Part shown: piece by piece, positions 8,646 to 22,797 of the stretch
Layout of the letters: each line of letters opens with the position of its first letter
Position numbering within the stretch: position 1 is the first letter of the stretch
NCBI GenBank assembly: GCA_964510585.1
Contig: CAZECW010000140.1
Coordinates: forward strand, 22,135-54,134
Length of the DNA stretch: 32,000 nucleotides
DNA from: an uncultured archaeon
GTDB taxonomy: Archaea; Asgardarchaeota; Jordiarchaeia; Jordiarchaeales; Jordiarchaeaceae
Direction of reading: 5' to 3'
Program-made: the position numbers and the translations under genes
Notes under the pieces: model-generated
The model's input: only the letters and a program-made list of their open reading frames with translations
Databases searched by the model: none
What the model was told of the DNA's origin: nothing

Positions 8646-8711
8646 AAAAATATTTTAAACCCGGTAAGCCTAATAAACCAGATATTCATAAACCCATCAA
8701 AAATTAGGTTT

Positions 8712-8830
8712 GGGCACGTCGCCTAGCCAGGATTTCAGAAACCTGAAAGGGCGCCGACAGTTAGGCGTACGCCCTCTAAAATCCTGGAGGATAGCCGGTT
8801 TCATCAGGGGTTCAAGTCCCCTCGTGCCCG
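8712..8830 (+). tRNA. tRNA-Arg(TCT) with three 14-nt introns (8734-8747 in D-loop just before A21, 8757-8770 at 29/30, 8779-8792 at 37/38)
   Basis: Acceptor GGGCACG/CGTGCCC, T-arm AGGGG-TTCAAGT-CCCCT. After intron removal the anticodon arm is CCGGC-CC-TCT-AA-GCCGG. BHB central helices CAGG/CCTG, GCGC/GCGT, CCTC/GAGG. Confidence 0.85.
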
Positions 8831-8886
8831 CCTATACTTTTATACATGTGGTTTATTTTTTAAATTATTGTTTAAAATTTTTGTTG

Positions 8887-9873
8887 TCATCTTTTAAAGT
8901 GTTCGTACCCCTTTGGATATATTCTTCTTTCAGTTTGGTTAGGTAGACGTAGCACCATATTTTTTTCTTCAGTTACAATTCCTATGGGGTACAAGTTGCC
9001 TCCAACGATCTTTACTGCATCTACGGCTTTGTTCCATTTCACGGAAGGAACTGTGACTACAAGTTCGAATTCTTCGCCACCATACAGTGCAAGATCAAAG
9101 TAGTTTAGTCCGTGTTCATTTGCAAACATTTGCACCTCTTTTGGGACGGGTATTGAATCAATAATAAATCCCACGCCGCTCATCTGTGAGATCTCGTAAA
9201 GCGACCAAGCTAGACCGTCGCTACTATCAATGCTGGAGGACGCGAGACCCCGCTCAGATAGAACTATCCCTTCTTTCAAACGGGCATGAGGTTCATAAAT
9301 GGCGCGTAAACCCAACTCTTTAGTCCTCGAGTCAGCGCTCAATTTTTCGAATAGTATCTTGAAGCCCATGGCGGTTAAGCCGAAATGTCCAGTAACAGCT
9401 ACTATGTCTCCAGGATGCGCCCCCCTGCGTGAAACGATTTTATTTCTTTCAACTATCCCAAAAACGGCTCCCGAAACCACAAGATCGGAACACTCATTGG
9501 TATCACCCCCCAAGTAATAAAATCCATACTCCCTGCAACCCGCATTTAGTCCCTTAACCAAATCTGCAGCTTCATCCCGAGTTGTCCCCCTCGGAAAACC
9601 CAGGGAGAAAACGCCACCCATTGGTTTGGCGCCCTTAGCAACAACATCGCTCACATTCATAACAGCTGCTTTTCGCCCCACCTGCCAATATGTCATACCA
9701 GGAGGAACATCTGTTTTACCCACAAGCATATCTGTGTTAACTATCAGAACATCGTTTCCGAAAGGAATCCCCACAGCGTCATCACCATAAGGCAAAACCG
9801 CACGCGGAAAGCTATCGATTAAGGTGTGAAATAATTCAATTAATCCACGCTCACCCACATCTTCCACAGTCAT
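8887..9873 (-). CDS. thiL: Thiamine-monophosphate kinase
   Basis: GERGLI, GDDA, NTDMLV, NVSDVVAKGAKP, GGDTN, DSSDGL, GGEEFEL. True start 9873; the ORF-track extension to 10026 runs through tRNA-Thr. Confidence 0.95.
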   Translation of the reverse strand: MTVEDVGERGLIELFHTLIDSFPRAVLPYGDDAVGIPFGNDVLIVNTDMLVGKTDVPPGMTYWQVGRKAAVMNVSDVVAKGAKPMGGVFSLGFPRGTTRDEAADLVKGLNAGCREYGFYYLGGDTNECSDLVVSGAVFGIVERNKIVSRRGAHPGDIVAVTGHFGLTAMGFKILFEKLSADSRTKELGLRAIYEPHARLKEGIVLSERGLASSSIDSSDGLAWSLYEISQMSGVGFIIDSIPVPKEVQMFANEHGLNYFDLALYGGEEFELVVTVPSVKWNKAVDAVKIVGGNLYPIGIVTEEKNMVLRLPNQTERRIYPKGYEHFKR

Positions 9874-9906
9874 TAAGAACCACCCAAAAAGCTGATAAAA
9901 AGGAAC

Positions 9907-10062
9907 TGGAGCCCCGGGCGAGGTTTTTGGAGCAGCAGAAATTGCAAGCTCTATCGAACTCGCGACCGTCAGCTTACTCAGACCACACTTTGAATGTGTG
10001 ATTGTACGAGGCTGCTGCTCTGCCACTGAGCTGTCTCGCCTCTGTTTCAGAGGAACCGAGGC
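9907..10062 (-). tRNA. tRNA-Thr(CGT) with three introns (10033-10054 at 8/9, 9975-10004 at 37/38, 9924-9952 at 59/60); CCA encoded
   Basis: Acceptor GCCTCGG/CCGGGGC, U73-CCA, D-arm GCTC-AGTGGCA-GAGC, loop CT-CGT-AA, T-arm GCGAG-TTCGATC-CTCGC; each intron has BHB geometry. Confidence 0.9.
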
Positions 10063-10212
10063 TCACCGAAGGCTCCATCTTTTACTAAAGAGTTCAAAGC
10101 ATTAATAATCTTTACTATGTGTGTCCAATGTGTCAATTTTTAATGTTAAAAAATCGAAGGATAACTAAGCGGGAAGCGGCATAAAAGATTCATTTAGTTG
10201 TTTTGGGAGTGA

Positions 10213-10357
10213 TGGTGCTCCGGCCGGGAGGCTCAAACTAAGTTTAAAGGTTAGCTTAGTTATTTGAACCCGGGTCAAAGGATCGATTGGGCAGATTTTC
10301 TTGAGCCCCTTATGCTTGGTCCATTTGGTTTGTTTGACCGGACTACACCACCGGAGC
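10213..10357 (-). tRNA. tRNA-Glu(CTC) with three introns (10316-10333 at 21/22, 10287-10302 at 34/35, 10230-10262 at 59/60); CCA encoded
   Basis: Acceptor GCTCCGG/CCGGAGC-A-CCA, GTGTAGTCCGGTCAA D-arm, variable TGAC; central helices GGTC/GACC, GGGC/GCCC, TTCA/TGAG. Confidence 0.9.
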
Positions 10358-10394
10358 ACCCTTAAGGAATGTTTTTCAAACCCATTTTTAAATT

Positions 10395-10874
10395 TTATTC
10401 AAAATTCCAAATATCGTCTCCAACGTGGTGCAGATTCTTTATAGCGGGTCCTTTGCTGGAACTTTTTATGGTTTGTGCATCCATAAGTGCTAGCCCTACG
10501 GCTAATGGTTTATCATGTTTTTCATCTGTGACCACGACTAGGGAGAATTGCTTTATGTTGTCGTCGACTTTGACGATTCCTGGAACCATGACGTCGGCTC
10601 CTTTGGTGATGAAGCCAACAGCGCCCATATCTACGGTGACTTTTGGGAGTTTTATAGCTCCGTTCAATATGGCTTTAAGGGTGGGAAAAAGTAGGTCTAC
10701 CATGCGAATAAGGAAGGGAGCCCCATCTACAAGATACAAATGAAGATCGTCTTTCAATACTCCGTACTCTACCTTTTCGGGAATGGAAAAGTTCTCTCCT
10801 AAACGCTCTCTTAGCTCCTTTTCCAATTTTTTAATTTCTTTATCGCGTAAGAAGTGACGATTCTTCAACTTCAA
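10395..10874 (-). CDS. PUA-domain RNA-binding protein (MCT-1/Tma20-like)
   Basis: RHFLRDKEIKKL N-terminus, VTVDMGAVGFITKGADVMVPGI PUA motif, LHHVGD; TTG start with GAGGCGG SD; divergent from lsm. Confidence 0.9.
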   Translation of the reverse strand: MKLKNRHFLRDKEIKKLEKELRERLGENFSIPEKVEYGVLKDDLHLYLVDGAPFLIRMVDLLFPTLKAILNGAIKLPKVTVDMGAVGFITKGADVMVPGIVKVDDNIKQFSLVVVTDEKHDKPLAVGLALMDAQTIKSSSKGPAIKNLHHVGDDIWNFE

Positions 10875-11216
10875 GAATACCGCCTCAACATAGACACTAA
10901 AACCTTTTTCTCATCCTTATTACAAACTTTCTATTTCCACATGAAATTCTCTAAAATATTATGACTTACTTAAAATAATAAGCTCTAAATATTTCAAAGT
11001 TGCGGAAAATGATATTAACCGCCCCAAAAACATATTACTATGGGTATTATATTAGTCCAAGTGTTTATAAAATTGGACTCAAAAAGAATATAATATCCGA
11101 ACAACAAGATTAAAATATATTTGGATATGACGATTGTAATCCGATATACTTAAATATTAACCTAATTCCAACAGAAAATACACAACCATATTTTTTCTAA
11201 AGGAGAGAAAAGCGTA

Positions 11217-11462
11217 ATGAGCGAATCAGGTATAACAAAACCTCTTGACCTACTTAACAGATCACTCGAAGCTAGAGTACTCGTTAAACTCAAAGGAGGA
11301 CGAGAACTTAGAGGCAAACTCAAAGGATTCGACCTCCACATGAATCTCATACTAGATGAAGCAGAAGAAGTAATAGATAAAGACAACAATAAAAAGGTAG
11401 GAACCGTAATAGTGAGAGGAGACAATGTGATCCTCCTCAGTCCTGGAATAAAAACAGAATAA
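11217..11462 (+). CDS. lsm: Sm-like (Lsm/SmAP1) protein
   Basis: Sm1 GKLKGFDLHMNLIL and Sm2 VIVRGDNV; followed by rpl37e as in the conserved archaeal pair. Confidence 0.95.
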   Translation: MSESGITKPLDLLNRSLEARVLVKLKGGRELRGKLKGFDLHMNLILDEAEEVIDKDNNKKVGTVIVRGDNVILLSPGIKTE

Positions 11463-11492
11463 AACATAAAATAATTCATAATAGGGATTGCA

Positions 11493-11678
11493 ATGACTAA
11501 AGGAACACCAAGCAAAGGCAAAAGAGACACAAAAACGCATATAAGATGCCGAAGATGTGGAAAACACTCATACCACGCCACAAAAAAGTACTGTGCAGCT
11601 TGTGGCTATGGAAGATCCAAAAGATTTAGAAGATACAGCTGGCAAAACAAAAAAATCAGAGGAAATAGACTAAAATAA
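11493..11678 (+). CDS. rpl37e: 50S ribosomal protein L37e
   Basis: [16 protein letters not shown]...CAACGYG zinc finger. Confidence 0.96.
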
Positions 11679-11736
11679 AGATAAAAAGTGTTTCTAATGG
11701 CAGAAAATAGGAGCGCCAATTAAAAAATTAGAGGGT

Positions 11737-11861
11737 GGGCCCATAGCTCAGCCTGGTATGAGCGCCGCGTTACTCATACCCTACTAACAAGGGCATGAGG
11801 GCGAAGGCAAGCTATCCCAAAATCGCGGAGGCCGCGAGTTCAAATCTCGCTGGGTCCACCA
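11737..11861 (+). tRNA. tRNA-Ala(GGC) with two introns (11772-11805 at 33/34, 11810-11822 at 37/38) and a 4-nt anticodon exon; CCA encoded
   Basis: G3:U70 acceptor GGGCCCA/TGGGTCC-A-CCA, Ala-type D-arm GCTCAGCCTGGTATGAGC, stem CCGCG/CGCGG; spliced loop TT-GGC-AT. Confidence 0.85.
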
Positions 11862-12306
11862 ATAATAATTAGTTTACCTGCCTTGGTGATGGGATAAGGA
11901 AGCTTAATATCAGAGAAGAATATTGGTTTTTATTGGTGTTATTATCTCAATATTTTATGTATTACCTAGTTCCTAGGTTTCTTGGTTATTCTTCACTATA
12001 CGAACGAATAGGGAAGAGAGACTGGAGACTAAAATCTCAATTATCATTCACCCTAAAAATTTAAATCAACATTAAAAGCCTTATGAATAAAGAGGTCGCG
12101 ATACAGATTTTTCAACTAGATAAAGATAAGAATACTGTCTTCTCCCTTATGCAGATTTGAGGACATATTTTGTAAGATTTACAATTTAAGCTCACTAATT
12201 TATCTTGGGATTCTTTTCAAATTGCAGACATATCTATGTAAAATGCAGAAGAGATGTCAGCCCGAGTAGAATGCTGGGCTTGTGTAGGTTTGATTTAAAA
12301 GAGAGG

Positions 12307-12407
12307 TGGTGGACACTGCGAGATTTGAACTCGCGGCCTCCTGGATGCGAACCAGGCGCTCTTGGATACCGCTTGTTTGGCGGAATCTTCCACTGAGCTA
12401 AGTGCCC
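12307..12407 (-). tRNA. tRNA-Ala(CGC) with one 26-nt intron (12361-12386 at 22/23); CCA encoded
   Basis: G3:U70 acceptor GGGCACT/AGTGTCC, arm CCTGG-TT-CGC-AT-CCAGG, central helix TGGA/TCCA with outer CCGC/GCGG. Confidence 0.92.
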
Positions 12408-12603
12408 TTTTTTTGTTATCTTTTTTCTTCTGCAGGAGTTTTTTAGATTTTTGGATATTTTAGCTTTTCTAGTTCAAATAGTTCATCCCTAAACTATTTA
12501 AAGCATTTTTGCATATGAGTTGAGGGAACAACAGGTTTTTGGTTGTGAAAACCTGTGATATCTTAATAGATTCGGTTTTACAGTTTTGTAGAAGGGCTTT
12601 GAA

Positions 12604-15057
12604 GTGAACGAACCTAAGCTCAGGAGTAAAAGATGGGATCTAAGTAAGGAATCAGAAATTTGGGAACTTTGGCAGAAGGAAGAAATATACAAGTTTAACA
12701 CAAACAGCGGTAAACCCATTTTTATTATTGATAATCCTCCCCCATATGTTTCCGGAAGATGGCATGTCGGCGGTGCTATTCACTACGCTGCGATTGATTA
12801 CATTGCACGTTTCATAAGGATGAAAGGATACGAAGTTCACTATAAGTTTGGCTTGGATCGTAATGGATTACCTGTCGAAGTCAGTGTGGAGAAAGAGTTT
12901 GGGATTAAGATGAGGGAGACGCCACGAGAGGAATTCATCGCCAAGTGTAAGCAGTACCTTGATACGGTTGGAGACTCGATACTGAATATTTGCAAAAAAC
13001 TTGGTTTTTCCAATAATTCTTGGAAGTGGGAAGAAATATACAAAACGGATCATGAAACTTACAGAGCTCTAACGCAGGAAACGTTTATTCAACTATGGAA
13101 TGAAGGGTTAATCTATGAGGATGATCGGCCGAACAGCTGGTGCACAGATTGTCAAACAGTCATAGCAGATGCCGAAGTAGAACGTAGAGAACAGGTTACT
13201 ACACTTGTCACAATCAACTTTAAAGTTAAGGAGAGCGGAGAAAACCTACCTATAGCCACTACCAGACCTGAACTGATATGTGCCTGTGACGCAGTTCTAG
13301 TTAATCCCGAGGATGAAAGATATAAACAGTTACATGGAAAAACAGCAATTACGCCCCTCTACAATAAGGAGGTACGCATTATTCCGCATCCCTCAGCCAA
13401 ACCAGAATTCGGTACGGGTGCGCTCATGGTTTGCTCTTATGGAGACATTACCGATTTGAGACATTTTAGAGAATTAAACCTTAAGCCAACATTTTCTATC
13501 GATAAAGATGGCTATATGACTGAAGCAGCCGGTAAATACAGGGGCATGAAAGTTGAAGAGGCAAGGAAGGCTATCGTTAATGATTTGAAAAGCCAAGGGT
13601 TATTAGTGAGGGAAGAAAAAATCACGCAAAGCCAACCGATATGCTGGAGAAGTAAAACGCCTATAGAATTCGTGGGTATGAAAGAGTATTATCTTAAACA
13701 GGTCGACTTCATTGAACCATTAAAGGAGATAACCGAAGACATCATCTGGCATCCACCTACTGCAAAGAAGCTTTGGCTTGATTGGCTGAACTCAATCACT
13801 ATGGACTGGCCCATATCTCGTCGAAGATACTATGGAACAGAAATACCTATATGGTACTGTAAATCATGTGGAGAGCCACACCTACCAAAACCCGGAAAAT
13901 ACTACCAGCCATGGAGAGAAAAAGCGCCATTCGACAAATGTAAGAAGTGCGGCTCAACAGAGGGATTCATAGGAGATGAACGCACACTAGACACTTGGAT
14001 GGACTCCTCAATCAGTCCTCTATATATATTAAAATATCCCCATGCATCAAATGATACTGAGTTCTTCGAAAGAGAAATCAAAAGGGATTATGTATCAGAC
14101 CTCCGACCTCAGGGAAGAGACATAATAGGGACATGGCTCAGTTACTCGCTACTCCGAATATATCAACTCTATAAAAAACCCGCGTTTAAACACGTGTGGA
14201 TAAGCGGCCACGTAGTAGACGCTGAAGGAAGAAAACTATCAAAAAGCCTCGGAAATGTGATCTATCCAGAACCACTCATCGAAAAATACGGTGCAGATGC
14301 AGTAAGACTGTATGGGGCAATGGCAAGCACATTAGGCTCCGATATCAGATTTGATGAGAAACGTCTAGGTGGAATCAGCAGATTCATAAACAAACTGTAC
14401 AACATAGCTAGATTTATATCCACATTCCCAGAGCCTAAAGAAGACGAAATAAAACTCTCAGCTACAGACAAATGGATAATCTCAGAACTAAACAAACTAA
14501 TACAAAGGGTAAATGAAAGCTACGAAACATTTGACTTCCATATCGGAGCCGAAGAAATATATAATTATGTATGGAACATCTTTGCAAGCCATATAGTAGA
14601 AATGGTTAAAACTAGGGCTTATAACCGAAATCACGACTTTACAGAAATAGAGCAAAAAAACGCAGAATGGACGTTACATCAGTGCCTTAAAACCATACTG
14701 AAACTCCTTGCACCAATTACGCCCTTCGTAACAGACTACATATGGAGAAGCATTTACAGTAAAGAAAGCATACACATACAAAAATTTCCAGAAGCCGACC
14801 CTAGACTAATACTAACCGAAGACCCGACGCCCATAATAATTAAAACGAACTCCGCAATTTGGAAAGCCAAAAAAGACGCCAACATATCTCTAAAACAACC
14901 CATAGAATATGCGAATCTACCAAAAGAACTAGAGCCATTCGCACAAGACCTAAAACAAATGCACAACATAAAACAAGTCACATTCATGGATCAACCCAAA
15001 CTAAAAAATGTAAAAACCTATCAAGTTGAAGAAAAAGAAATCCAAATCAAAATCTAA
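12604..15057 (+). CDS. valS: Valine--tRNA ligase, archaeal type
   Basis: DNPPPYVSGRWHVGG (HIGH variant), GTGALMVCSYGD editing motif, DWPISRRRYYG, KLSKS (KMSKS variant). Confidence 0.93.
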   Translation: MNEPKLRSKRWDLSKESEIWELWQKEEIYKFNTNSGKPIFIIDNPPPYVSGRWHVGGAIHYAAIDYIARFIRMKGYEVHYKFGLDRNGLPVEVSVEKEFGIKMRETPREEFIAKCKQYLDTVGDSILNICKKLGFSNNSWKWEEIYKTDHETYRALTQETFIQLWNEGLIYEDDRPNSWCTDCQTVIADAEVERREQVTTLVTINFKVKESGENLPIATTRPELICACDAVLVNPEDERYKQLHGKTAITPLYNKEVRIIPHPSAKPEFGTGALMVCSYGDITDLRHFRELNLKPTFSIDKDGYMTEAAGKYRGMKVEEARKAIVNDLKSQGLLVREEKITQSQPICWRSKTPIEFVGMKEYYLKQVDFIEPLKEITEDIIWHPPTAKKLWLDWLNSITMDWPISRRRYYGTEIPIWYCKSCGEPHLPKPGKYYQPWREKAPFDKCKKCGSTEGFIGDERTLDTWMDSSISPLYILKYPHASNDTEFFEREIKRDYVSDLRPQGRDIIGTWLSYSLLRIYQLYKKPAFKHVWISGHVVDAEGRKLSKSLGNVIYPEPLIEKYGADAVRLYGAMASTLGSDIRFDEKRLGGISRFINKLYNIARFISTFPEPKEDEIKLSATDKWIISELNKLIQRVNESYETFDFHIGAEEIYNYVWNIFASHIVEMVKTRAYNRNHDFTEIEQKNAEWTLHQCLKTILKLLAPITPFVTDYIWRSIYSKESIHIQKFPEADPRLILTEDPTPIIIKTNSAIWKAKKDANISLKQPIEYANLPKELEPFAQDLKQMHNIKQVTFMDQPKLKNVKTYQVEEKEIQIKI

Positions 15058-15104
15058 TAGAAACCAAAATCCTTGACCTACAGGAACCGAAGCGGGGAAT
15101 CTAA

Positions 15105-15638
15105 TTATAGCATATACTTCTCATACAACCTTTTTGCCATTAGCTCAAAAACATCATCAACTTTTTCTCCAGTCTTAGCTGATGTCTCAAAAAATTCTAA
15201 ACCCAACTTGGAGGCCAATTCAGCCCCCACAGCCCTAGAAATCCGTCTATCATTTATTAGATCTGTCTTATTCCCGATAAGGAAACAAGGAATGTTGCCA
15301 CAAATACTCATAACATCATTATGCCAATTAACAATATGTTCGAAGGAAGCTGTATTGGTCACATCGAAAACAATGAAACATCCGCGGGCGCCACTCAAAT
15401 AAAATCTACGTAAAGTCCTATATTGTTCCTGTCCTCCCAAATCCCAGCAAGCCAATTTGATGGCTCTACGCCTATTATCGTCCCCCTTGAGTTCAACAAC
15501 CTTAACGGCAAAATCTGTACCCAGTGTGGGGATGTAACTTTCGACGAATCGCCTTTCCGTATATCTTATTAGTATCGAGGTTTTCCCCACATTTGCATCT
15601 CCCACCAGTACCACTTTGTACATAAATTCTTCAGTCAT
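15105..15638 (-). CDS. Rab-like small GTPase (Ras superfamily)
   Basis: G1 GDANVGKT, G2 PTLGTDF, G3 WDLGGQ, G4 NKTD, G5 ETSAK; GAGG SD. Confidence 0.93.
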   Translation of the reverse strand: MTEEFMYKVVLVGDANVGKTSILIRYTERRFVESYIPTLGTDFAVKVVELKGDDNRRRAIKLACWDLGGQEQYRTLRRFYLSGARGCFIVFDVTNTASFEHIVNWHNDVMSICGNIPCFLIGNKTDLINDRRISRAVGAELASKLGLEFFETSAKTGEKVDDVFELMAKRLYEKYML

Positions 15639-15741
15639 TGGTGCTGCCTCAGATTGTTCTTTATTTAGGAATTTTATTTTTCATTGTGATTTTATTTATC
15701 ATTGAACTTTTAATAATTTTCCTAGTATTTTTTTAAGGGTT

Positions 15742-16563
15742 TTATTTTTGATTTCTTGTTAGTTCTTCTATTCTTTTTTTGGCGGGTATGTTAAGGGATA
15801 ATAGTCTTTCCGTTAAGTATTCGAATGGTCTTACGTATGTGGGATTTCGGATCCATATTCCTAGGTCGTAAACTAGGAGTGGTTCCCACTTTCCTATGAA
15901 GGTGACTAAACAGTCTTTGCCGTCTGCTATATATGTTCCTATGGGGATTTCTCCGAGAGTCCAGTGGTATATAGTTCCATTTTGGCTTAGTTTTTGGGCT
16001 ATTTCTAGTGTGTTTTTGTCAATTTTCCATCCCGCGATAACTTCTACTTTTTGTTGGACTTTTTCTTCCAGTATTTTAAATATTCTGTTCGGCTCCTTGT
16101 CTGATTTCGTGAATGTAGGAGTTATTATAGAGTGTATACTGTTTCTTGCGCGTTGCAGTATATCTTCTATTATTTCGTTTATTCTCTTTTCTCCATCTAT
16201 CAACCAAGCAGTGGGTACTCTTCCTGGTGCTACGACTTGCCCTTCTTGGAACCATTTCTTAAGGTTCTGAGCATATTGTTCTTTATTTTTCAGGTCTTTT
16301 TCCACATCTGCGAGAACTATGTCGGGAGGGACTGCGGAGTAAAGCGGGGCGCGTTTTACAGCTTCTCTTTCTGCGTATCCTTTTCTTATTAATTTCTTTA
16401 GAACTGCATAGACGTTTGGTCGGGGCACTCCTGAGAGGTTTGATAATTGTGTTGGGTTTAGAGAGCCTTCAGTTACTAGTGTTATGTAAACTCTAGCCTC
16501 GTAGTCAGTGAAGCCAATTTTTTGCATGAATTCTAGTACCTTTTCTTTTTCTACTGGGCTCAT
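15742..16563 (-). CDS. TrmB-family transcriptional regulator
   Basis: GFTDYEARVYITL...SGVPRPNVYAVLKKL wHTH plus effector-binding domain; ATG at 16563 preferred. Confidence 0.88.
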   Translation of the reverse strand: MSPVEKEKVLEFMQKIGFTDYEARVYITLVTEGSLNPTQLSNLSGVPRPNVYAVLKKLIRKGYAEREAVKRAPLYSAVPPDIVLADVEKDLKNKEQYAQNLKKWFQEGQVVAPGRVPTAWLIDGEKRINEIIEDILQRARNSIHSIITPTFTKSDKEPNRIFKILEEKVQQKVEVIAGWKIDKNTLEIAQKLSQNGTIYHWTLGEIPIGTYIADGKDCLVTFIGKWEPLLVYDLGIWIRNPTYVRPFEYLTERLLSLNIPAKKRIEELTRNQK

Positions 16564-16981
16564 TATACTCACACCGTTTACTTTTACACTGACTATATTA
16601 GAGAGAAAGTTTGGGAGTGGTAGTGGATTTAAAGATGGCTTTTAGAATGATTTTATCCCCTTCTGGAACTAAACTTGTAGTAGGTTGCTACTTTCTAGGA
16701 TATGCTTATTTTTCGGTAATTTAAGTTTTTCTGTTGCATTAATACATCATTATAGGGAATTTATAGTTTTCTTTTTATATTTATTATTATGAAGTATATA
16801 GTTAATTTATTTTGAATATTATTAATTTTCTTCTTATAGAAACCAAAATATTTATGTAGTAGAATAACAAAAATATGGATAGAAATATTTGTAGCTTAGC
16901 TACATTATTCTCATCCCCCTACCAACCTAAAAATGCCCCCACCACCATCAAATAAAGGAGACCCCCAAACGACAAACTCCC

Positions 16982-17009
16982 GGAGGAGAGAAAAAATCTT
17001 CTCTCCTCC
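16982..17009. repeat. Perfect 11-bp inverted repeat (hairpin)
   Basis: GGAGGAGAGAA-aaaatc-TTCTCTCCTCC in the aRF1-trmB intergenic region. Confidence 0.8.
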
Positions 17010-17248
17010 CATCGCTCTGTCAAACCCCAAATTTTTGGGGGGAAAGCACTCTTTTTAATCACTGAAACAATGTAACGATTCTATTTTTGGGGATAAACTT
17101 CTTCGCTCTAATTTTTCCAGTAAAAAAGTCTAGGAACGTCCGTCCAATTGGGGGCGAATCTTGTTGTCTAGCTCCACAAAAGTTAATCCTAAAACTAAAA
17201 GCACTATCTCATACTTTCCAAAGGCTTACAAAAGTATTATCATACATG

Positions 17249-18529
17249 TTAATTGTTGAGATTGTAACGTAGTAGTGCTGCGATGCCGCCGAATGCTTGT
17301 TTTAGCTGTTGTCCCTCTTCTGTCTCTGGGGATATTATTTCTACATTGGCTCCTGTTTGCTCGGCGAGCTCACCTAATTCATCGATTAAGGGTGTAACCT
17401 TTTCGATAGATAGCAGGGAGCTGGCACAATTTGGGCAGCTTCGGCTCTGAGTTTGTTGCTCTAAAGATGGCAATTCACTCTTTTTAATTGTCAATTCTTC
17501 TTGGTATTTGCAGTTAGGACAACTAATTATGACACGTAGTATGTCAAGTTCTTCAGATAGCAGTAAGGTATCTACTGCTCCTTGGTTAAGGGCTTTTCGA
17601 ACTTCCTTTTCTCCATAGGCTACTAAGCTATCGTCCTTCACTAGCTGAGTCAGAAATTTTTGCACTAAAACTTTCTCTTCGGAGTATCGAATGTTTTGAA
17701 GTAGGTCTTGGGATTTATCAATTAGTTCGTCGATTCCGGAGCTTCCAGTATATGCTAAATCAACCACGCCTCGAATGACGTTCTTTAAACGATAGTCGAG
17801 GTAGCTGCTTTCAGCAAATTTATTTTTTGAGGGACCAGGGCCTCCTATTATTATGCCTTTTAAATCTGGAATTTGGAGGTAAAGTTCATTTGCGTACTCT
17901 CCAGCTCGTTTGAAGAATTCATGGCCTGCTTGTTCAATTAGTCTTTCAAATCTTCTTTGTGATTGTCCCCCTGCGTGGTGTTTTCCTGGAGCTCCAGAAG
18001 TAATTTTTTTGAGAATTTCCAAATGGTTTCCTTTCAGAATGGCAAAATCTGCTTCAGATCTATCGATTACTATGAGTCCATAGGTGTCTTTTTCAACCAG
18101 CATATCCTTAAGGGGATCTAAGAAAAATTTACTATCACAGTGGTATTTGTAGATTTTAATAGGTTCAGGTGGAACAATGGTGATAAGCTCCATTCGCTCT
18201 GTGCCTTGGCCGTTGGTAGGAATCGCACCACAGAAAATGACTAAACCAGTAGGTGGAGGTCTGGGCACATTTTTGAGCAGAGCCAGAATTTTTTGAATAG
18301 CATCCATCACATTTTTCCTAGTGGATTTAGACTTGATGTTGGAAGCGGTTCCATACTCTTGTTTTAAGTAGTTGGTAACATCGCTGATTTGCCTGTCTGG
18401 GGGTATGTATAGGGAAACCAGCTCAGTATGATAACCTCTCTTTTTTTCTAGAGCATCCAATTGCTGTTTTAATTTGTATTTTTCAAACGATGACCTTTTT
18501 TTCTGCTCTTGTTGCTCCAATACTGACAC
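17249..18529 (-). CDS. prf1: Peptide chain release factor aRF1
   Basis: TASNIKS, YHCDSKF, HHAGGQSQRRF; C-domain insert with two CPNC motifs. Start could be GTG 18529 or TTG 18520. Confidence 0.96.
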   Translation of the reverse strand: MSVLEQQEQKKRSSFEKYKLKQQLDALEKKRGYHTELVSLYIPPDRQISDVTNYLKQEYGTASNIKSKSTRKNVMDAIQKILALLKNVPRPPPTGLVIFCGAIPTNGQGTERMELITIVPPEPIKIYKYHCDSKFFLDPLKDMLVEKDTYGLIVIDRSEADFAILKGNHLEILKKITSGAPGKHHAGGQSQRRFERLIEQAGHEFFKRAGEYANELYLQIPDLKGIIIGGPGPSKNKFAESSYLDYRLKNVIRGVVDLAYTGSSGIDELIDKSQDLLQNIRYSEEKVLVQKFLTQLVKDDSLVAYGEKEVRKALNQGAVDTLLLSEELDILRVIISCPNCKYQEELTIKKSELPSLEQQTQSRSCPNCASSLLSIEKVTPLIDELGELAEQTGANVEIISPETEEGQQLKQAFGGIAALLRYNLNN

Positions 18530-18878
18530 CTTCTATATTGTAGTTTGATTAAAAACAGGGGGTAACCCCAAAATTTTTAGAGTGGTAAGCTATGAACACA
18601 TGAGATTTCCCTACTCGAAAAGTCAAAGTAGTATCTTTAGTTAATAAAGGTAGATAGAGTTAGTTTATCTAATTTTTGGAATCACCCAATTAACTTTTTC
18701 AAAGGCATACTAAGCAAATACAATTAACAGTATTAAACCTTTCTTAGCTTCTAGTTTCTTTAAAGTGAAGGGGGTTCTTTAATGGGGAGCCTAATTATTT
18801 AAAGGGAGATTCAGCAACATTTAACAAAATATAAAAGATTTTATTATTCGATTTCAAATTGGAGAGTGATTCAACAAA

Positions 18879-19568
18879 ATGAAGATTGTACTAAAAATTG
18901 GGGGTTCCTTAATCCAGGACGAATCGGGAAACATTATCTTGGAGAGATTTGCCGAGTATGCCAAAACAATCTTGAAACTCAGAAAAGAAAACATAGACAT
19001 ACCAGCTATTATTCTTGGGGGAGGCAAAATAGCGAGAAAATACATCGAGGCCGCACGTAAACTAGGAGCCCCCGAAGGTCTTTGTGACGAGATTGGAATA
19101 AGAGCCGCCCAGTTAAATGCTCAATTGATGGTAGGTGCTCTAGATAGAGAAGCCTATCCCACAATTCCAGACACCTTACAAGAGGTAGCCGGTGCAGTTG
19201 CGACGGGAAAAATAGTAGTTGTCGGTGGTTTACAACCGGGACAATCAACTAATGCCGTAGCAGCACTTGTTGCAGAGCGAATAAAAGCAGACATGCTAAT
19301 AAACGTTACAGACGTAGATGGGGTTTACACCAAAGACCCCAAAAAGGATCCAAATGCCAAAAAAATTGATAAAATCACAATAAAGGAAATCCAAGAAATA
19401 CTAAGTGAAAAGGGCTTCTCTGCAGGTAAATACGAGTTATTCGACCCAGTGGCATTAAAGATTCTAGAAAGATCAAAAATTCCTGCATGGATAATTAGTG
19501 GGGAAGACCCCCAGAACATACTGAAAGTAGTTGCGGGGGAGAATATAGGAACAAGAATAGTATACTAG
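18879..19568 (+). CDS. pyrH: Uridylate kinase
   Basis: VLKIGGS, GGGKIARKYI, PGQSTNAVAA, TDVDGVYTKDPK, FDPVA. Confidence 0.95.
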   Translation: MKIVLKIGGSLIQDESGNIILERFAEYAKTILKLRKENIDIPAIILGGGKIARKYIEAARKLGAPEGLCDEIGIRAAQLNAQLMVGALDREAYPTIPDTLQEVAGAVATGKIVVVGGLQPGQSTNAVAALVAERIKADMLINVTDVDGVYTKDPKKDPNAKKIDKITIKEIQEILSEKGFSAGKYELFDPVALKILERSKIPAWIISGEDPQNILKVVAGENIGTRIVY

Positions 19569-19585
19569 TCTCAGGTGAATTCGTT

Positions 19586-19864
19586 TTGAGAGAATTAGAG
19601 CAAATTTTCGGTAGCTTGGCTCAAACTCGAATATTACAGTTCCTACTAGAAAATAAAGGCAAAGCCTTTAACTTATCCGAAATTGCAGAAAACACAAAAG
19701 TAGCCAATAGCACAGTGGGAAGAGTAATAAAAAAACTCCTAGACCAAGATTTAATTGAAGAAATAACAAGATGGAAACAAATGAGAATCGTAAGATTAAA
19801 CAACGAAAGTGAAAAAACAAAAATCTTACTAAAGTTCCTAGAAGACATTAAAAAGACAAAATAA
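19586..19864 (+). CDS. Small winged-HTH protein (ArsR/MarR-like)
   Basis: IFGSLAQTRILQFL...FNLSEIAENTKVANSTVGRVIKKL; TTG start with AGGTGA SD. Confidence 0.8.
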   Translation: MRELEQIFGSLAQTRILQFLLENKGKAFNLSEIAENTKVANSTVGRVIKKLLDQDLIEEITRWKQMRIVRLNNESEKTKILLKFLEDIKKTK

Positions 19865-20242
19865 ATTTATGAAGATGCTTCAAAAACAAAACCAGTATGG
19901 AAGATATTAATTAAACAATCTGAAAGATGCTCCTGTCGATTGATAACATTATGTTTATGTATAAGTTAACACATGTCAAAAGGTTTCTTTGAATAATCGC
20001 TAACAGGAGGGGGTAAATTAGAAAAAAATCTAAAAGACAAACAATTATCCTTTCACATAATATGCAGAATTAAGTTTTACAATATTGCTCTACCATGACA
20101 GTTATTCTCCAGTAGGATCCTTTTACCCATTTGAATTAGTAATAATAAATAGCATTAAAAGATATGTCGGTACCCCAGTAATATGTTTTTAGAGCAGATT
20201 GTTTGAGCGTAAAAAAAGCGGGTTAAATAAGGGGAAGAAGGT

Positions 20243-20386
20243 TGGTGCAGGGCAGGAGAGTCTCGGGAGATGAAGCCAATCTCCATTCGAACTCCTGAAC
20301 CCCTACGGGACTGGATTTCTTAACTATTTGTTGTTTTTCTCTTTGATCTTGAGTCCAGCGCCGTTGACCTGCTTGGCTAGCCCTGC
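20243..20386 (-). tRNA. tRNA-Leu(CAA) with two introns (20317-20347 at 37/38, 20260-20285 at 59/60); CCA encoded
   Basis: Acceptor GCAGGGC/GCCCTGC-A-CCA, CTGGA-CT-CAA-GA-TCCAG, long variable arm TCCCGTAGGGGTTC; T-loop intron has TTCG/CGAG helix and GGAGAT/ATCTCC outer stem. Confidence 0.92.
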
Positions 20387-20602
20387 AACCATTTCTTCTA
20401 GGCTTTCTTTATGTTGTTTGTTTTAAATATTTGTCGGGTGGAGTCTATAAGGATTATTAATATATATTTAATGTTGCCATTTAAGGATTTAAAAGTCTTG
20501 GATATACTGTTAAAATTGCTCAAATAGTACAATAGTGGATACAGTTCAAATTTGAGCGTAAAAATATCTTCAATTTTTGTTTACATTTAGGAGGTGTAAA
20601 TT

Positions 20603-21058
20603 ATGAGAAGTGGTGAGGTACATAATAAAGGTGAGATTTCTCTTATGGATATTATTGGTGAAATTAGGAAGAACCCGAATATTAATAAGGCTGGCGCTAT
20701 TGCCTGTTTTATTGGGATTGTTCGTGGCGAGTCGCAGGAGGGAGTTCCTGTAGAAAAGCTAGAGTTGGAAGCATACGAGGAAAAGGCAAACGAAACACTA
20801 ACTGGTATCTGTGAGGATATTAAACGTAGGGAAGGTATAATTGATGTGCATATTCACCATAACGTTGGAGAATTTGGTGTAGGTGAGGAAGTGGTGTATG
20901 TGGTAGTTGCTGGAAAGCATAGGAAGGAATTGTTCTCGGCGCTTATCGATGCTGTGGAGAGATACAAGAAAGAAGCTCAAATATGGAAAGCTGCCTAGGA
21001 ATAAGCAGCCCATAAAAAGGAGTATACTTTAAGTGGAGCTCGCTGGGTGAAGGAATAA
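20603..21058 (+). CDS. moaE: Molybdopterin synthase catalytic subunit, spliced: join(20603..20988,21016..21058), 142 aa
   Basis: GAIACFIGIVR, LELEAY, HHNVG, GKHRKE; removing 27 nt restores ...AQIWKKEYTLSGARWVKE*; AGGAGGTG SD. Confidence 0.88.
20989..21015 (+). other. Candidate 27-nt BHB mRNA intron in moaE
   Basis: ATGG-[AA|A]-GCTGC-ctaggaataa-GCAGC-CCAT-[AA|A]; contains in-frame TAG and TAA. Confidence 0.82.
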
Positions 21059-21092
21059 TCTATCACATATCATTATGTGGGAGGCGTTTTGA

Positions 21093-21605
21093 TTGCTGGT
21101 TGGTGTGATTTCGGATAGTCATGATAGGATTGAGGCTATTCGTGCTGCGGTTGAGCTGTTTAATTCGGAATCTGTTGAGTTGGTGCTTCATGCGGGGGAT
21201 ATTGTGAGCCCTTTCAGTGTTAGGGAATTTGAGAAATTAAGGTGTAAAATTATATGCGTTACTGGTAATAATGATGGTGATCGGGCTGCTTTGAGAAAAT
21301 TTTTGGGTAGGTTTGGTGGAGAATTGAGGGACGGTTTTTGTAAACTTGATGTTAATGATAGGAGGGTGGCGCTTATACATGGAGAATTTCCCGAAGTTGT
21401 TGAGGCACTTATTCTGTCTGGGAGGTATGATGTTGTAATTAGTGGTCATAGTCACGAGGCGTATATTAGGGAGCAGAATGGAGTTTTGGCACTAAATCCG
21501 GGTAGCTGTAGTTACCCTATTGTGAATGGAGTTGTGACCATTGGGAGGGGAACAATTGCTATTCTGGATCTGAGGGGTATGAGAGCGAATCTTATAACAA
21601 TTTAG
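21093..21605 (+). CDS. Metallophosphoesterase, MJ0936/YfcE family
   Basis: SDSHD, HAGD, GNND, IHG, SGHSH, NPGS motifs. Confidence 0.92.
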   Translation: MLVGVISDSHDRIEAIRAAVELFNSESVELVLHAGDIVSPFSVREFEKLRCKIICVTGNNDGDRAALRKFLGRFGGELRDGFCKLDVNDRRVALIHGEFPEVVEALILSGRYDVVISGHSHEAYIREQNGVLALNPGSCSYPIVNGVVTIGRGTIAILDLRGMRANLITI

Positions 21606-21612
21606 AGATGCC

Positions 21613-22797
21613 TTAGGGTCGAGTTAGAGCGGCAATAAAGTTTCCGGGGGTTCCATGTAAATCTGGTTCGAATCGGATGGTTTTTCTTGCCTCTGAGAAG
21701 TAGCGTGATAGCCCTGGAGAGCCAAAGGTTTTGGATAGGTCTTTGAGTTCTAGTCCGAGTTCTTCTAGGCAATATTTTATGTTTAGTTCATTTTCTTCGA
21801 CTGTCAGGGTGCATGTGCTGTAGATCATTGTGCCTCCTGGCTTCAATAATTTTGCAGCGATCTTTAAAAATTGGCGTTGATATGCCGATGTGGATATGAT
21901 TTGTTTCTCGGTGGTGTTGTCATAGAGTTTTGGTCTTACTCCTATTGCGGTGCAAGGCGGATCTACTATGATTCTGTCCGCTTTAAGACATGGGTATTTT
22001 TTATTTAAGATTCGGGAATCTAAATTTATTGAAATTACGTTTTTGATTCCTAGGCGTTTTATGTGACTTCTGAGTTTTTCTATCTTTTTTTTGGAGCGGT
22101 CTAATGCAAGAATTTTGCCAGTGTTCTTCATTAATTGGGCAGTGTGTGTAGTTTTTCCTCCGGGCCCTGCGCACATGTCGATTATGAACTCATCTTGTTG
22201 TGGTTCAAGAAGTATGCTAGCAATAATTGCTGGGAGACTTTGAAAGTAAATTAATCCTTGGGAATAGATCCAAGAATCTTTCAGGTTGGGAACTTTGTAT
22301 ATGGACTTTGTTGTTTTCACCGCAACACCATTTTTTCTATTCATTATGTCCTTACTATCCATTACCGCCACCCCCTCTGCTACCTTTAATCCAGATCGAT
22401 CCTCAATTACGACAGGGTCATTTTTCTTTATTCTTTCGAGTTTAATTATTCCTGAAGAGTATAGGTCAGAGCCTTGCATTACAGCTTCACATGCGAATTT
22501 ATCTGCGATAACTTTTTTTCCTATTGCTTCTATTGGAAATGGACCTTTAACTTCTAGGAGAATGGCCTCACTAATGTCGGGGTGGATTTTAGCACTTATG
22601 GAAGACTGTTCTAATTCTCTTAACACATGGTTGGCGGATGTTAACAGAGTGTTTATTCTAATTGAGAAAATTCGGCTTGGTGTTTTCAATTCTTTTATAA
22701 TTTTTTCTGCCCTTGTGTATCCATAGTATTCGATTAGTCTAGAAACCACACTTGGAGAATAATTATACTGACTAGAGAGTTGGGCAGTCTCATCCAA
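21613..22797 (-). CDS. RsmB/NOP2 (Nsun) RNA m5C methyltransferase with PUA domain
   Basis: PUA (AVMQGSDLY), DMCAGPGGKT, VDPPCTAIG, YSTCT. Confidence 0.93.
   Translation of the reverse strand: MDETAQLSSQYNYSPSVVSRLIEYYGYTRAEKIIKELKTPSRIFSIRINTLLTSANHVLRELEQSSISAKIHPDISEAILLEVKGPFPIEAIGKKVIADKFACEAVMQGSDLYSSGIIKLERIKKNDPVVIEDRSGLKVAEGVAVMDSKDIMNRKNGVAVKTTKSIYKVPNLKDSWIYSQGLIYFQSLPAIIASILLEPQQDEFIIDMCAGPGGKTTHTAQLMKNTGKILALDRSKKKIEKLRSHIKRLGIKNVISINLDSRILNKKYPCLKADRIIVDPPCTAIGVRPKLYDNTTEKQIISTSAYQRQFLKIAAKLLKPGGTMIYSTCTLTVEENELNIKYCLEELGLELKDLSKTFGSPGLSRYFSEARKTIRFEPDLHGTPGNFIAALTRP

Follow-up and report, generated by a model that had tools for sequence, protein, structure and literature searches.

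A window of 32,000 nucleotides (nt) from the genome of an uncultured Asgard archaeon (assembly GCA_964510585.1, contig CAZECW010000140.1, positions 22,135 to 54,134 of the forward strand; coordinates below count from the first letter of the window unless stated otherwise) carries six transfer RNA (tRNA) genes, all of them interrupted, and a moaE gene whose reading frame is broken near its 3' end by a short insert with in-frame stop codons. The closest relatives are Candidatus Freyarchaeota, Jordarchaeia, Jordarchaeum madagascariense and the complete SRVP19_Freyarchaeia-1 chromosome, and matching DNA is found in hot-spring metagenomes. Here we describe the inserts of the tRNA genes and of moaE as introns of the bulge-helix-bulge (BHB) type, together with the enzymes of the same genome that may remove them and with similar inserts in three further protein genes.

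Six interrupted tRNA genes

When the unprocessed window was given to ARAGORN no tRNA was called, and Rfam at its gathering score found two, with inserts of 28 nt (D-loop) and 52 nt (anticodon loop). Intergenic DNA was read on both strands, and an intron-tolerant search for a T-arm, a 7-base-pair (bp) acceptor stem and U8 gave six tRNA frames with spans of 98–153 nt; a seventh match, AT-rich and inside a coding sequence, was false. The introns were parsed by hand in each frame and then checked with a BHB scoring routine. Initial blind enumerations of BHB combinations yielded many spurious anticodons, and were replaced by hand parsing and BHB geometry. Removal of 14 inserts of 13–34 nt leaves six sequences of 72–87 nt, and in all six ARAGORN recognizes a full cloverleaf without intron. 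The restored tRNAs are Arg(UCU), Thr(CGU) and Glu(CUC) with three introns each, Ala(GGC) and Leu(CAA) with two and Ala(CGC) with one, or 2.33 introns per gene. CCA is encoded in five of the six genes (all but tRNA-Arg), and both alanine tRNAs possess G3:U70.

The tRNA-Arg(UCU) gene (8712–8830, plus strand; 119 nt, mature 77 nt, without encoded CCA) is supported by the cloverleaf after splicing, by the frame search and by orthologues. Its three introns are all 14 nt long and lie in the D-loop at about 20/21 (8734–8747; central helix CAGG/CCTG, 4/4 paired), at 29/30 in the anticodon stem (8757–8770; GCGC/GCGT) and at the canonical position 37/38 (8779–8792; CCTC/GAGG). Two genes on the minus strand follow, both recognized by the spliced cloverleaf and the frame search. 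tRNA-Thr(CGU) (9907–10062; 156 nt including CCA, mature 75 nt) has a 22-nt intron at 8/9 (10033–10054) with a strict BHB, central helix CTCG/CGAG and an inner helix of 6 bp, a 30-nt intron at the canonical 37/38 (9975–10004; CTCG/TGAG) and a 29-nt intron in the T-loop at 59/60 (9924–9952) whose central helix has one mismatch. tRNA-Glu(CUC) (10213–10357; 145 nt including CCA, mature 78 nt) has an 18-nt intron at the border of D-loop and D-stem (10316–10333; GGTC/GACC, without outer helix), a 16-nt intron at 34/35 within the anticodon (10287–10302; GGGC/GCCC) and a 33-nt intron in the T-loop at 59/60 (10230–10262), again a strict BHB, with an outer helix of 5 bp and an inner helix of 7 bp.

Both alanine genes rest on Rfam and on the spliced cloverleaf, and the first on its congeners as well. 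tRNA-Ala(GGC) (11737–11861, plus strand; 125 nt including CCA, mature 78 nt) contains a 34-nt intron at 33/34 (11772–11805; central helix 3/4 paired, inner helix CTCAT/ATGAG) and a 13-nt intron at the canonical 37/38 (11810–11822; TTGG/CCAA). tRNA-Ala(CGC) (12310–12407, minus strand; 98 nt, CCA adjacent at 12307–12309, mature 72 nt) has one 26-nt intron in the D-arm (12361–12386; TGGA/TCCA, without outer helix). The last gene, tRNA-Leu(CAA) (20243–20386, minus strand; 144 nt including CCA, mature 87 nt with a long variable arm), was found by the frame search and restored as a spliced cloverleaf; it carries a 31-nt intron at the canonical 37/38 (20317–20347; central helix 3/4 paired, without inner helix) and a 26-nt intron in the T-loop at 59/60 (20260–20285), a strict BHB with outer and inner helices of 6 bp each.

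The 14 introns are thus distributed over position 37/38 (four: Arg, Thr, Ala-GGC and Leu), position 59/60 (three: Thr, Glu and Leu), the D-arm (three: Arg, Glu and Ala-CGC) and, with one each, 8/9 (Thr), 29/30 (Arg), 33/34 (Ala-GGC) and 34/35 (Glu). That every tRNA is interrupted, with 14 introns in six of six genes, agrees with the original prediction made from the letters of the window, as established by the frame search and by the cloverleafs after splicing; its figure of eleven non-canonical introns comes down to 10 of 14 on recount, since four lie at 37/38.

The borders were placed between the second and third base of the 3-nt bulges, a rule for archaeal BHB introns stated by Yokobori 2009 (PMC2738675). 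So placed, the inserts show two 3-nt bulges with a 4-bp helix between them, and their excision restores a cloverleaf with 7-nt loops. Over 15 junctions (the 14 of the tRNAs and that of moaE) the central helix is paired 4/4 in 11, 3/4 in three and 2/4 in one, with a mean of 3.67, and for the tRNA introns alone the counts are 10, three and one, the last becoming 4/4 once its neighbor is removed. When the boundaries were shifted out of register as a control, the mean central pairing was 1.43 and only 1.4% reached 4/4. The strict hBHBh' motif is found in three tRNA introns (Thr 8/9, Glu 59/60 and Leu 59/60) and the remainder are relaxed, as had also been predicted: the inner helix is absent from the three Arg introns and from Leu 37/38, and the outer helix from the D-arm introns.

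Such relaxation leads to the question whether some inserts, namely those in the D-arms of tRNA-Glu and tRNA-Ala(CGC) and at 33/34 of tRNA-Ala(GGC), are not EndA introns at all but retained expansions, substrates of another nuclease, or parts of non-functional copies. These candidates indeed have no outer helix or have a mismatch in the central one, and a recent preprint notes a minority of D-arm inserts without canonical motif (Goswami 2026, 10.64898/2026.10.13.758758). On the other hand, each of them has a central helix of 3/4 or 4/4 exactly where excision restores a standard D-loop or a 7-nt anticodon loop, and a tRNA that retained 34 nt between U33 and G34 could not decode. The frame search of the genome, which missed other tRNA genes, gave no uninterrupted gene for these isoacceptors, and loop-bearing (alpha-beta)2 EndA is documented to cut HBh' and hBH motifs (Kaneta 2018, PMC5829648). 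We therefore regard this explanation as unlikely and treat all 14 inserts as probable EndA introns.

The anticodon of tRNA-Ala(GGC) is carried on an exon of only 4 nt, GGCA (11806–11809), between the two introns. The helix TTGG/CCAA of its 37/38 intron is paired in only two of four positions until the 34-nt intron at 33/34 is removed, after which it is paired in all four. Because TT and GG become adjacent only through that excision, the two introns would have to leave in a fixed order, which we infer from the sequence of the gene. The CCAA AA element of the second intron is kept in all five congeners in the alignment of this gene. In a short contig from another organism, ..GCGTT runs directly into GGCATCGC, diverging at 11771, and this is the mature junction predicted for tRNA-Ala(GGC).

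Comparison within the genus gives further support to the introns. The orthologous tRNA-Arg and tRNA-Ala(GGC) genes were aligned from five genomes of the same genus, and both show compensatory changes. The central helix of the Arg 37/38 intron changes on both sides in one congener, from CCTC/GAGG to CTTC/GAAG, which restores U33 as well, and the inner helix of the Ala(GGC) 33/34 intron changes from CTCAT/ATGAG to CCCAT/ATGGG in two. Additional introns in the variable or T region, absent from the genes of the window, occur in the orthologues of two congeners (tRNA-Arg of G005; tRNA-Ala(GGC) of G005 and G002), indicating that introns are still being gained or lost within the genus.

The phenotype extends over the genome (3.78 Mb, 96% complete). 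The Rfam tRNA model has nine matches in it, of which one is of normal length, and a search for acceptor and T-arm frames gave 32 candidates against four on the reversed sequence. All but one of the 32 span 93–311 nt, and 21 have a T-loop insert of 17–33 nt; this search is incomplete and other tRNA genes were missed. Among the sequencing runs listed as carrying this DNA none is on record as RNA. Contigs of two runs labeled metatranscriptomic (probably DNA) and of two DNA runs, matched to positions 8700–21100, come from a relative of about 95% identity; the introns are present in them, there are no spliced joints, and they have no bearing on expression or splicing.

Inserts in moaE and other protein genes

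The moaE gene is read on the plus strand. Exon 1 (20603–20988) encodes the MoaE Pfam domain and breaks off two bases into the lysine codon that follows ..IW, the putative messenger RNA (mRNA) intron (20989–21015) is 27 nt long with in-frame TAG and TAA, and exon 2 (21016–21058, stop codon at 21056–21058) completes a protein that after splicing would end in ..IWKKEYTLSGARWVKE. An mRNA intron ending at 21015 had been part of the original prediction, and the end coordinate found here is identical. If unspliced, the open reading frame (ORF; 20603–20998) is 131 amino acids long and terminates in ..IWKAA*, while the same frame downstream encodes KKEYTLSGARWVKE*. The BHB has a central helix ATGG/CCAT paired 4/4, two bulges that both read AA|A, and an inner helix GCTGC/GCAGC of 5 bp.

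Comparison with other genomes agrees with this structure. In alignments of the read-through translation with solved MoaE and MoaX proteins, the insert corresponds to a gap of exactly 9 residues. Among 40 related genomes, in-frame stops in moaE occur only in five of the same genus, whose inserts are 24, 26, 27, 26 and 25 nt long; the BHB core is the same in all, and they vary only in the apical loop. Three of the five lengths would shift the reading frame, so that excision can keep the moaE frame and read-through cannot. In six genomes exon 2 encodes a conserved peptide although its nucleotides have changed, and orthologues outside the genus have an uninterrupted [IL]WKKE[YH]T..G.YWV without any insert. 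BHB elements at both borders, a conserved protein restored by excision and intron-less orthologues are the features of the archaeal cbf5 pre-mRNA intron, and by these sequence features, which support it well, the moaE intron appears to be a new addition to the cbf5-type mRNA introns. No second broken gene was seen in the window: apart from moaE, all ORFs of more than 80 amino acids with a Pfam match show full-length domain coverage.

Two other explanations of the moaE insert have to be considered. The ribosome might bypass it, leaving at the AAA lysine codon 20987–20989 and landing at AAA 21014–21016, and the resulting protein would be identical. The matching codons flank an insert that holds a hairpin and stop codons, a length variation of 24–27 nt would be tolerable, and the frame alone would be compatible with such an event. 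Yet what is conserved is precisely the BHB (the ATGG/CCAT helix and the two 3-nt bulges), which bypass would not need; the inserts of rtcB and tyrS described below have a BHB but no matching take-off and landing codons; and a full splicing machinery is encoded and presumably used on nearly all tRNAs. Bypass is in our view very improbable. The second explanation is a truncated or decaying moaE, with a shortened protein of 131 residues and a mere relic of similarity downstream. The raw ORF does end in IWKAA*, and these 131 residues already span the Pfam model up to its end. Against this, the 13–14 codons downstream are conserved as protein in six genomes and come in frame only after the exact removal of four different insert lengths, and both orthologues and solved structures retain the KE..G..WV tail, so that we give decay of moaE hardly any credence. 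Excision as an intron is the reading that we follow for moaE.

Three more genes of the genome contain inserts of this kind. In rtcB a 30-nt insert (locus L023, 1561–1590; contig C58, 3762–3791, plus strand) with an in-frame TGA and the BHB elements CCCG AC|A ... CGGG AA|G splits the conserved metal-binding motif PD|AHQGYG, and its removal restores ..LPDAHQGYGFPIGG. It is present in all five congeners, in one of them with a frameshifting length, and absent from the other matching relatives, with the exception of a lone, unexamined TGA in the distant genome G027. In a further relative, G013, rtcB lies in an open frame of 1015 amino acids in which the match falls into two distant pieces, possibly an intein. 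In tyrS the HIGH region holds a 30-nt BHB insert (locus L125, 1535–1564; contig C4, about 22120–22149) that contains three in-frame stops, and removal of the insert gives ..EPSGLFHLGW... The third gene is cbf5 itself, with a 31-nt strict BHB intron (contig C18, 27688–27718, minus strand) that interrupts the catalytic aspartate codon after its first base (GTL|DP). That other broken-looking genes of this genome may be spliced, as had been suggested from the window, is thus supported by the putative introns of rtcB, tyrS and cbf5.

A generic screen for mRNA introns was less informative. From 221,557 strong BHB candidates in the genome, filtered for joining two open frames, 3,797 passed as compared to 3,834 position-shifted decoys, which is no enrichment. 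Of ten strong candidates whose two flanks were compared with Pfam, six were plain gene junctions and four were uninformative. The genome-wide BHB search envisaged by the original prediction therefore fared no better than decoys as a generic screen, although the cbf5 intron did surface in it; since the screen is not specific, it gives no count of mRNA introns for the genome.

The splicing machinery and the origin of the introns

The genome has PF01974 matches at two loci, in ORFs of 192 and 198 amino acids, and an RtcB (578 bits). The two EndA ORFs lie at 1468–2046 of locus L001 on the minus strand and at 1192–1788 of locus L002 on the plus strand. The EndA alpha subunit aligns with the alpha subunit of Aeropyrum pernix (3P1Z_B, E=3e-45) with the Tyr/His/Lys triad kept and with ..FSVYEHGPGIDHAP.. 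and ..SVRKK.. aligned. In its N-terminal loop, K47 in ..PLGIRKPKSPQF.. aligns with APE K44 in ..PLDVEKPRGADF.., the loop lysine that has been tied to broad EndA specificity (PMC5829648). The beta-like paralogue keeps the tyrosine and the lysine, whereas threonine replaces the catalytic histidine (His125 in M. jannaschii), as expected for a structural beta subunit. The two paralogues support a predicted (alpha-beta)2 layout of broad specificity. The genome thus appears to encode, rather than a lone strict EndA, the broad-specificity EndA/RtcB system that had been proposed from the relaxed motifs.

From the anatomy of the inserts, the restored cloverleafs and reading frame, the orthologues without introns, the compensatory changes and the enzyme genes, we infer cleavage and ligation in the cell, and we consider it highly probable that this is a hot-spring Asgard archaeon with nearly all of its tRNA genes interrupted, whose BHB introns are cut by an (alpha-beta)2 EndA and joined by RtcB, the moaE mRNA most likely being processed likewise. 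Each precursor tRNA would fold such that the intron borders sit in 3-nt bulges beside a 4-bp helix. The (alpha-beta)2 EndA, its alpha subunit provided with a crenarchaeal-type loop lysine, would cut after the second bulge base, and RtcB would then join the exons. For tRNA-Ala(GGC) the 33/34 intron would be taken out first and the 37/38 motif would form afterwards. The same machinery most likely excises the 27-nt moaE intron, restoring the conserved C-terminus.

Several points weigh against this interpretation. Splicing of the tRNA and moaE inserts is in each case deduced from DNA. Several motifs are relaxed: three central helices are mismatched, and one is just 2/4 before ordered splicing. That the introns without outer or inner helix are cut is an assumption drawn from the broad specificity known for loop-bearing (alpha-beta)2 enzymes. 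ARAGORN still calls tRNAs in 18–100% of trials when the cuts are displaced by 1–6 nt, and because it tolerates displaced cuts, the exact junctions rest on BHB geometry and on standard 7-nt loops. The D-arm junctions are ambiguous by 1–2 nt, that of tRNA-Ala(CGC) sliding by 2 nt with an unchanged product. The spliced tRNA-Arg(UCU) has the anticodon loop CCUCUAA (8773–8778 plus 8793), hence C33, an unusual base where U is nearly universal; C33 is common to three congeners, and a fourth carries T33 together with a compensating intron change. Lastly, the stems of the moaE intron are invariant over six genomes, and hence there is no covariation for it.

How did the introns reach their places? The original prediction had them spreading between tRNAs and into mRNA, and they could be copies of a mobile family, the moaE intron included. 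Many introns do occupy the same site (three at 59/60), and the intron content of orthologous tRNAs differs between congeners. When 16 introns were compared by blastn-short with the genome and with each other, however, only self matches and chance matches of at most 17 nt appeared, so that there is no evidence of copying and no mutual resemblance; nor did Goswami 2026 find a general copying route. We hold a mobile family to be rather improbable. The introns of moaE and rtcB occur in one genus only and, judging from this distribution, look recent rather than ancestral. We put forward, tentatively and as a possibility that we rate somewhat below even, that protein genes of this Asgard genus have recently come under tRNA-type splicing through introns that arose de novo rather than by copying, and that the intron of rtcB makes the ligase dependent on itself. 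If this is true, new RtcB could be made only via existing RtcB, a self-dependent loop that may act as a switch or be a vulnerability, and the genus would offer a living example of mRNA intron gain in a relative of the eukaryotes. The intron of rtcB also hints that the ligase and its own mRNA could be linked by feedback.

The relevance to intron history near the eukaryotic root, which had been expected if the host was Asgard, holds only in part: the host is Asgard, but moaE and rtcB introns that are confined to one genus and look recent say little about the root. What they may offer is a lineage suited to studying how introns enter protein genes near the eukaryotes. Ras-type small GTPases are eukaryote-signature proteins typical of Asgard archaea, and a small GTPase of the Ras/Roc family (15105–15638, minus strand) is located among translation genes of the window, which fits an Asgard origin. 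Separately, a C-rich and A-rich intergenic stretch at 16900–17060, between a TrmB-like gene and eRF1, contains a perfect GGAGAGAA..TTCTCTCC hairpin; this stretch matches no Rfam family and contains no tRNA frame.

Comparison with known systems

The tRNA intron load and the EndA type of this lineage are already published. Heavy tRNA interruption has been reported for Freyarchaeia and Atabeyarchaeia (Valentin-Alvarado 2024, PMC11291895), and in Freyrarchaeaceae 98% of the tRNA genes are interrupted, with 2.42 inserts per gene, and the (alpha-beta)2 layout is present in 44 of 60 genomes (Goswami 2026, 10.64898/2026.10.13.758758). Over Freyarchaeia/Jordiarchaeia and Atabeyarchaeia the two studies describe 92–98% of tRNA genes as interrupted, more than half of them with multiple introns and many at non-canonical positions. 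Lineage and phenotype are those of our window (about 2.4 inserts per gene as against 2.33), which is one more example without essential difference. The carriers of the moaE intron include the SRVP19_Freyarchaeia-1 chromosome of the published set, and introns in protein genes are not mentioned in the text of either study, as searched. The tRNA sets of these Asgard genomes are also badly undercounted, a problem already documented, as standard tools see 0–2 of the six tRNAs of the window and about nine in the genome; in the same way gene callers will report moaE, rtcB, tyrS and cbf5 as truncated or broken.

Outside the Asgard archaea, the multiple-intron tRNAs of Thermoproteales (Sugahara 2008; Fujishima 2010) are similar: multiple BHB introns per tRNA, non-canonical locations such as the D-arm and 59/60, relaxed motifs and a loop-bearing (alpha-beta)2 EndA, in a different phylum. 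The predicted enzyme resembles the A. pernix EndA 3P1Z with its Crenarchaea-specific loop (L1) in having two paralogous subunits, the Tyr/His/Lys triad and a lysine equivalent to K44, and differs in that its beta-like subunit is closer to the M. jannaschii homotetramer protein than to any solved crenarchaeal beta. Conservation of the L1 loop in Asgard EndA has been noted before (Kaneta 2018, PMC5829648).

For the protein genes the closest system is the cbf5 pre-mRNA intron of Desulfurococcales and Sulfolobales, a short BHB intron cut by a heterotetrameric EndA between the second and third bulge bases (Watanabe 2002; Yokobori 2009, PMC2738675). The cbf5 intron of our own genome lies at the same site of the aspartate codon (PMC2738675). 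Splicing of the crenarchaeal cbf5 intron was shown by complementary DNA (cDNA), whereas moaE, rtcB and tyrS are other host genes known here from sequence. Our literature search found no paper on BHB introns in Asgard protein genes, the published case being cbf5. In the searchable literature cbf5 is the only archaeal protein gene known to need tRNA-type splicing, and moaE, rtcB and tyrS would add to it.

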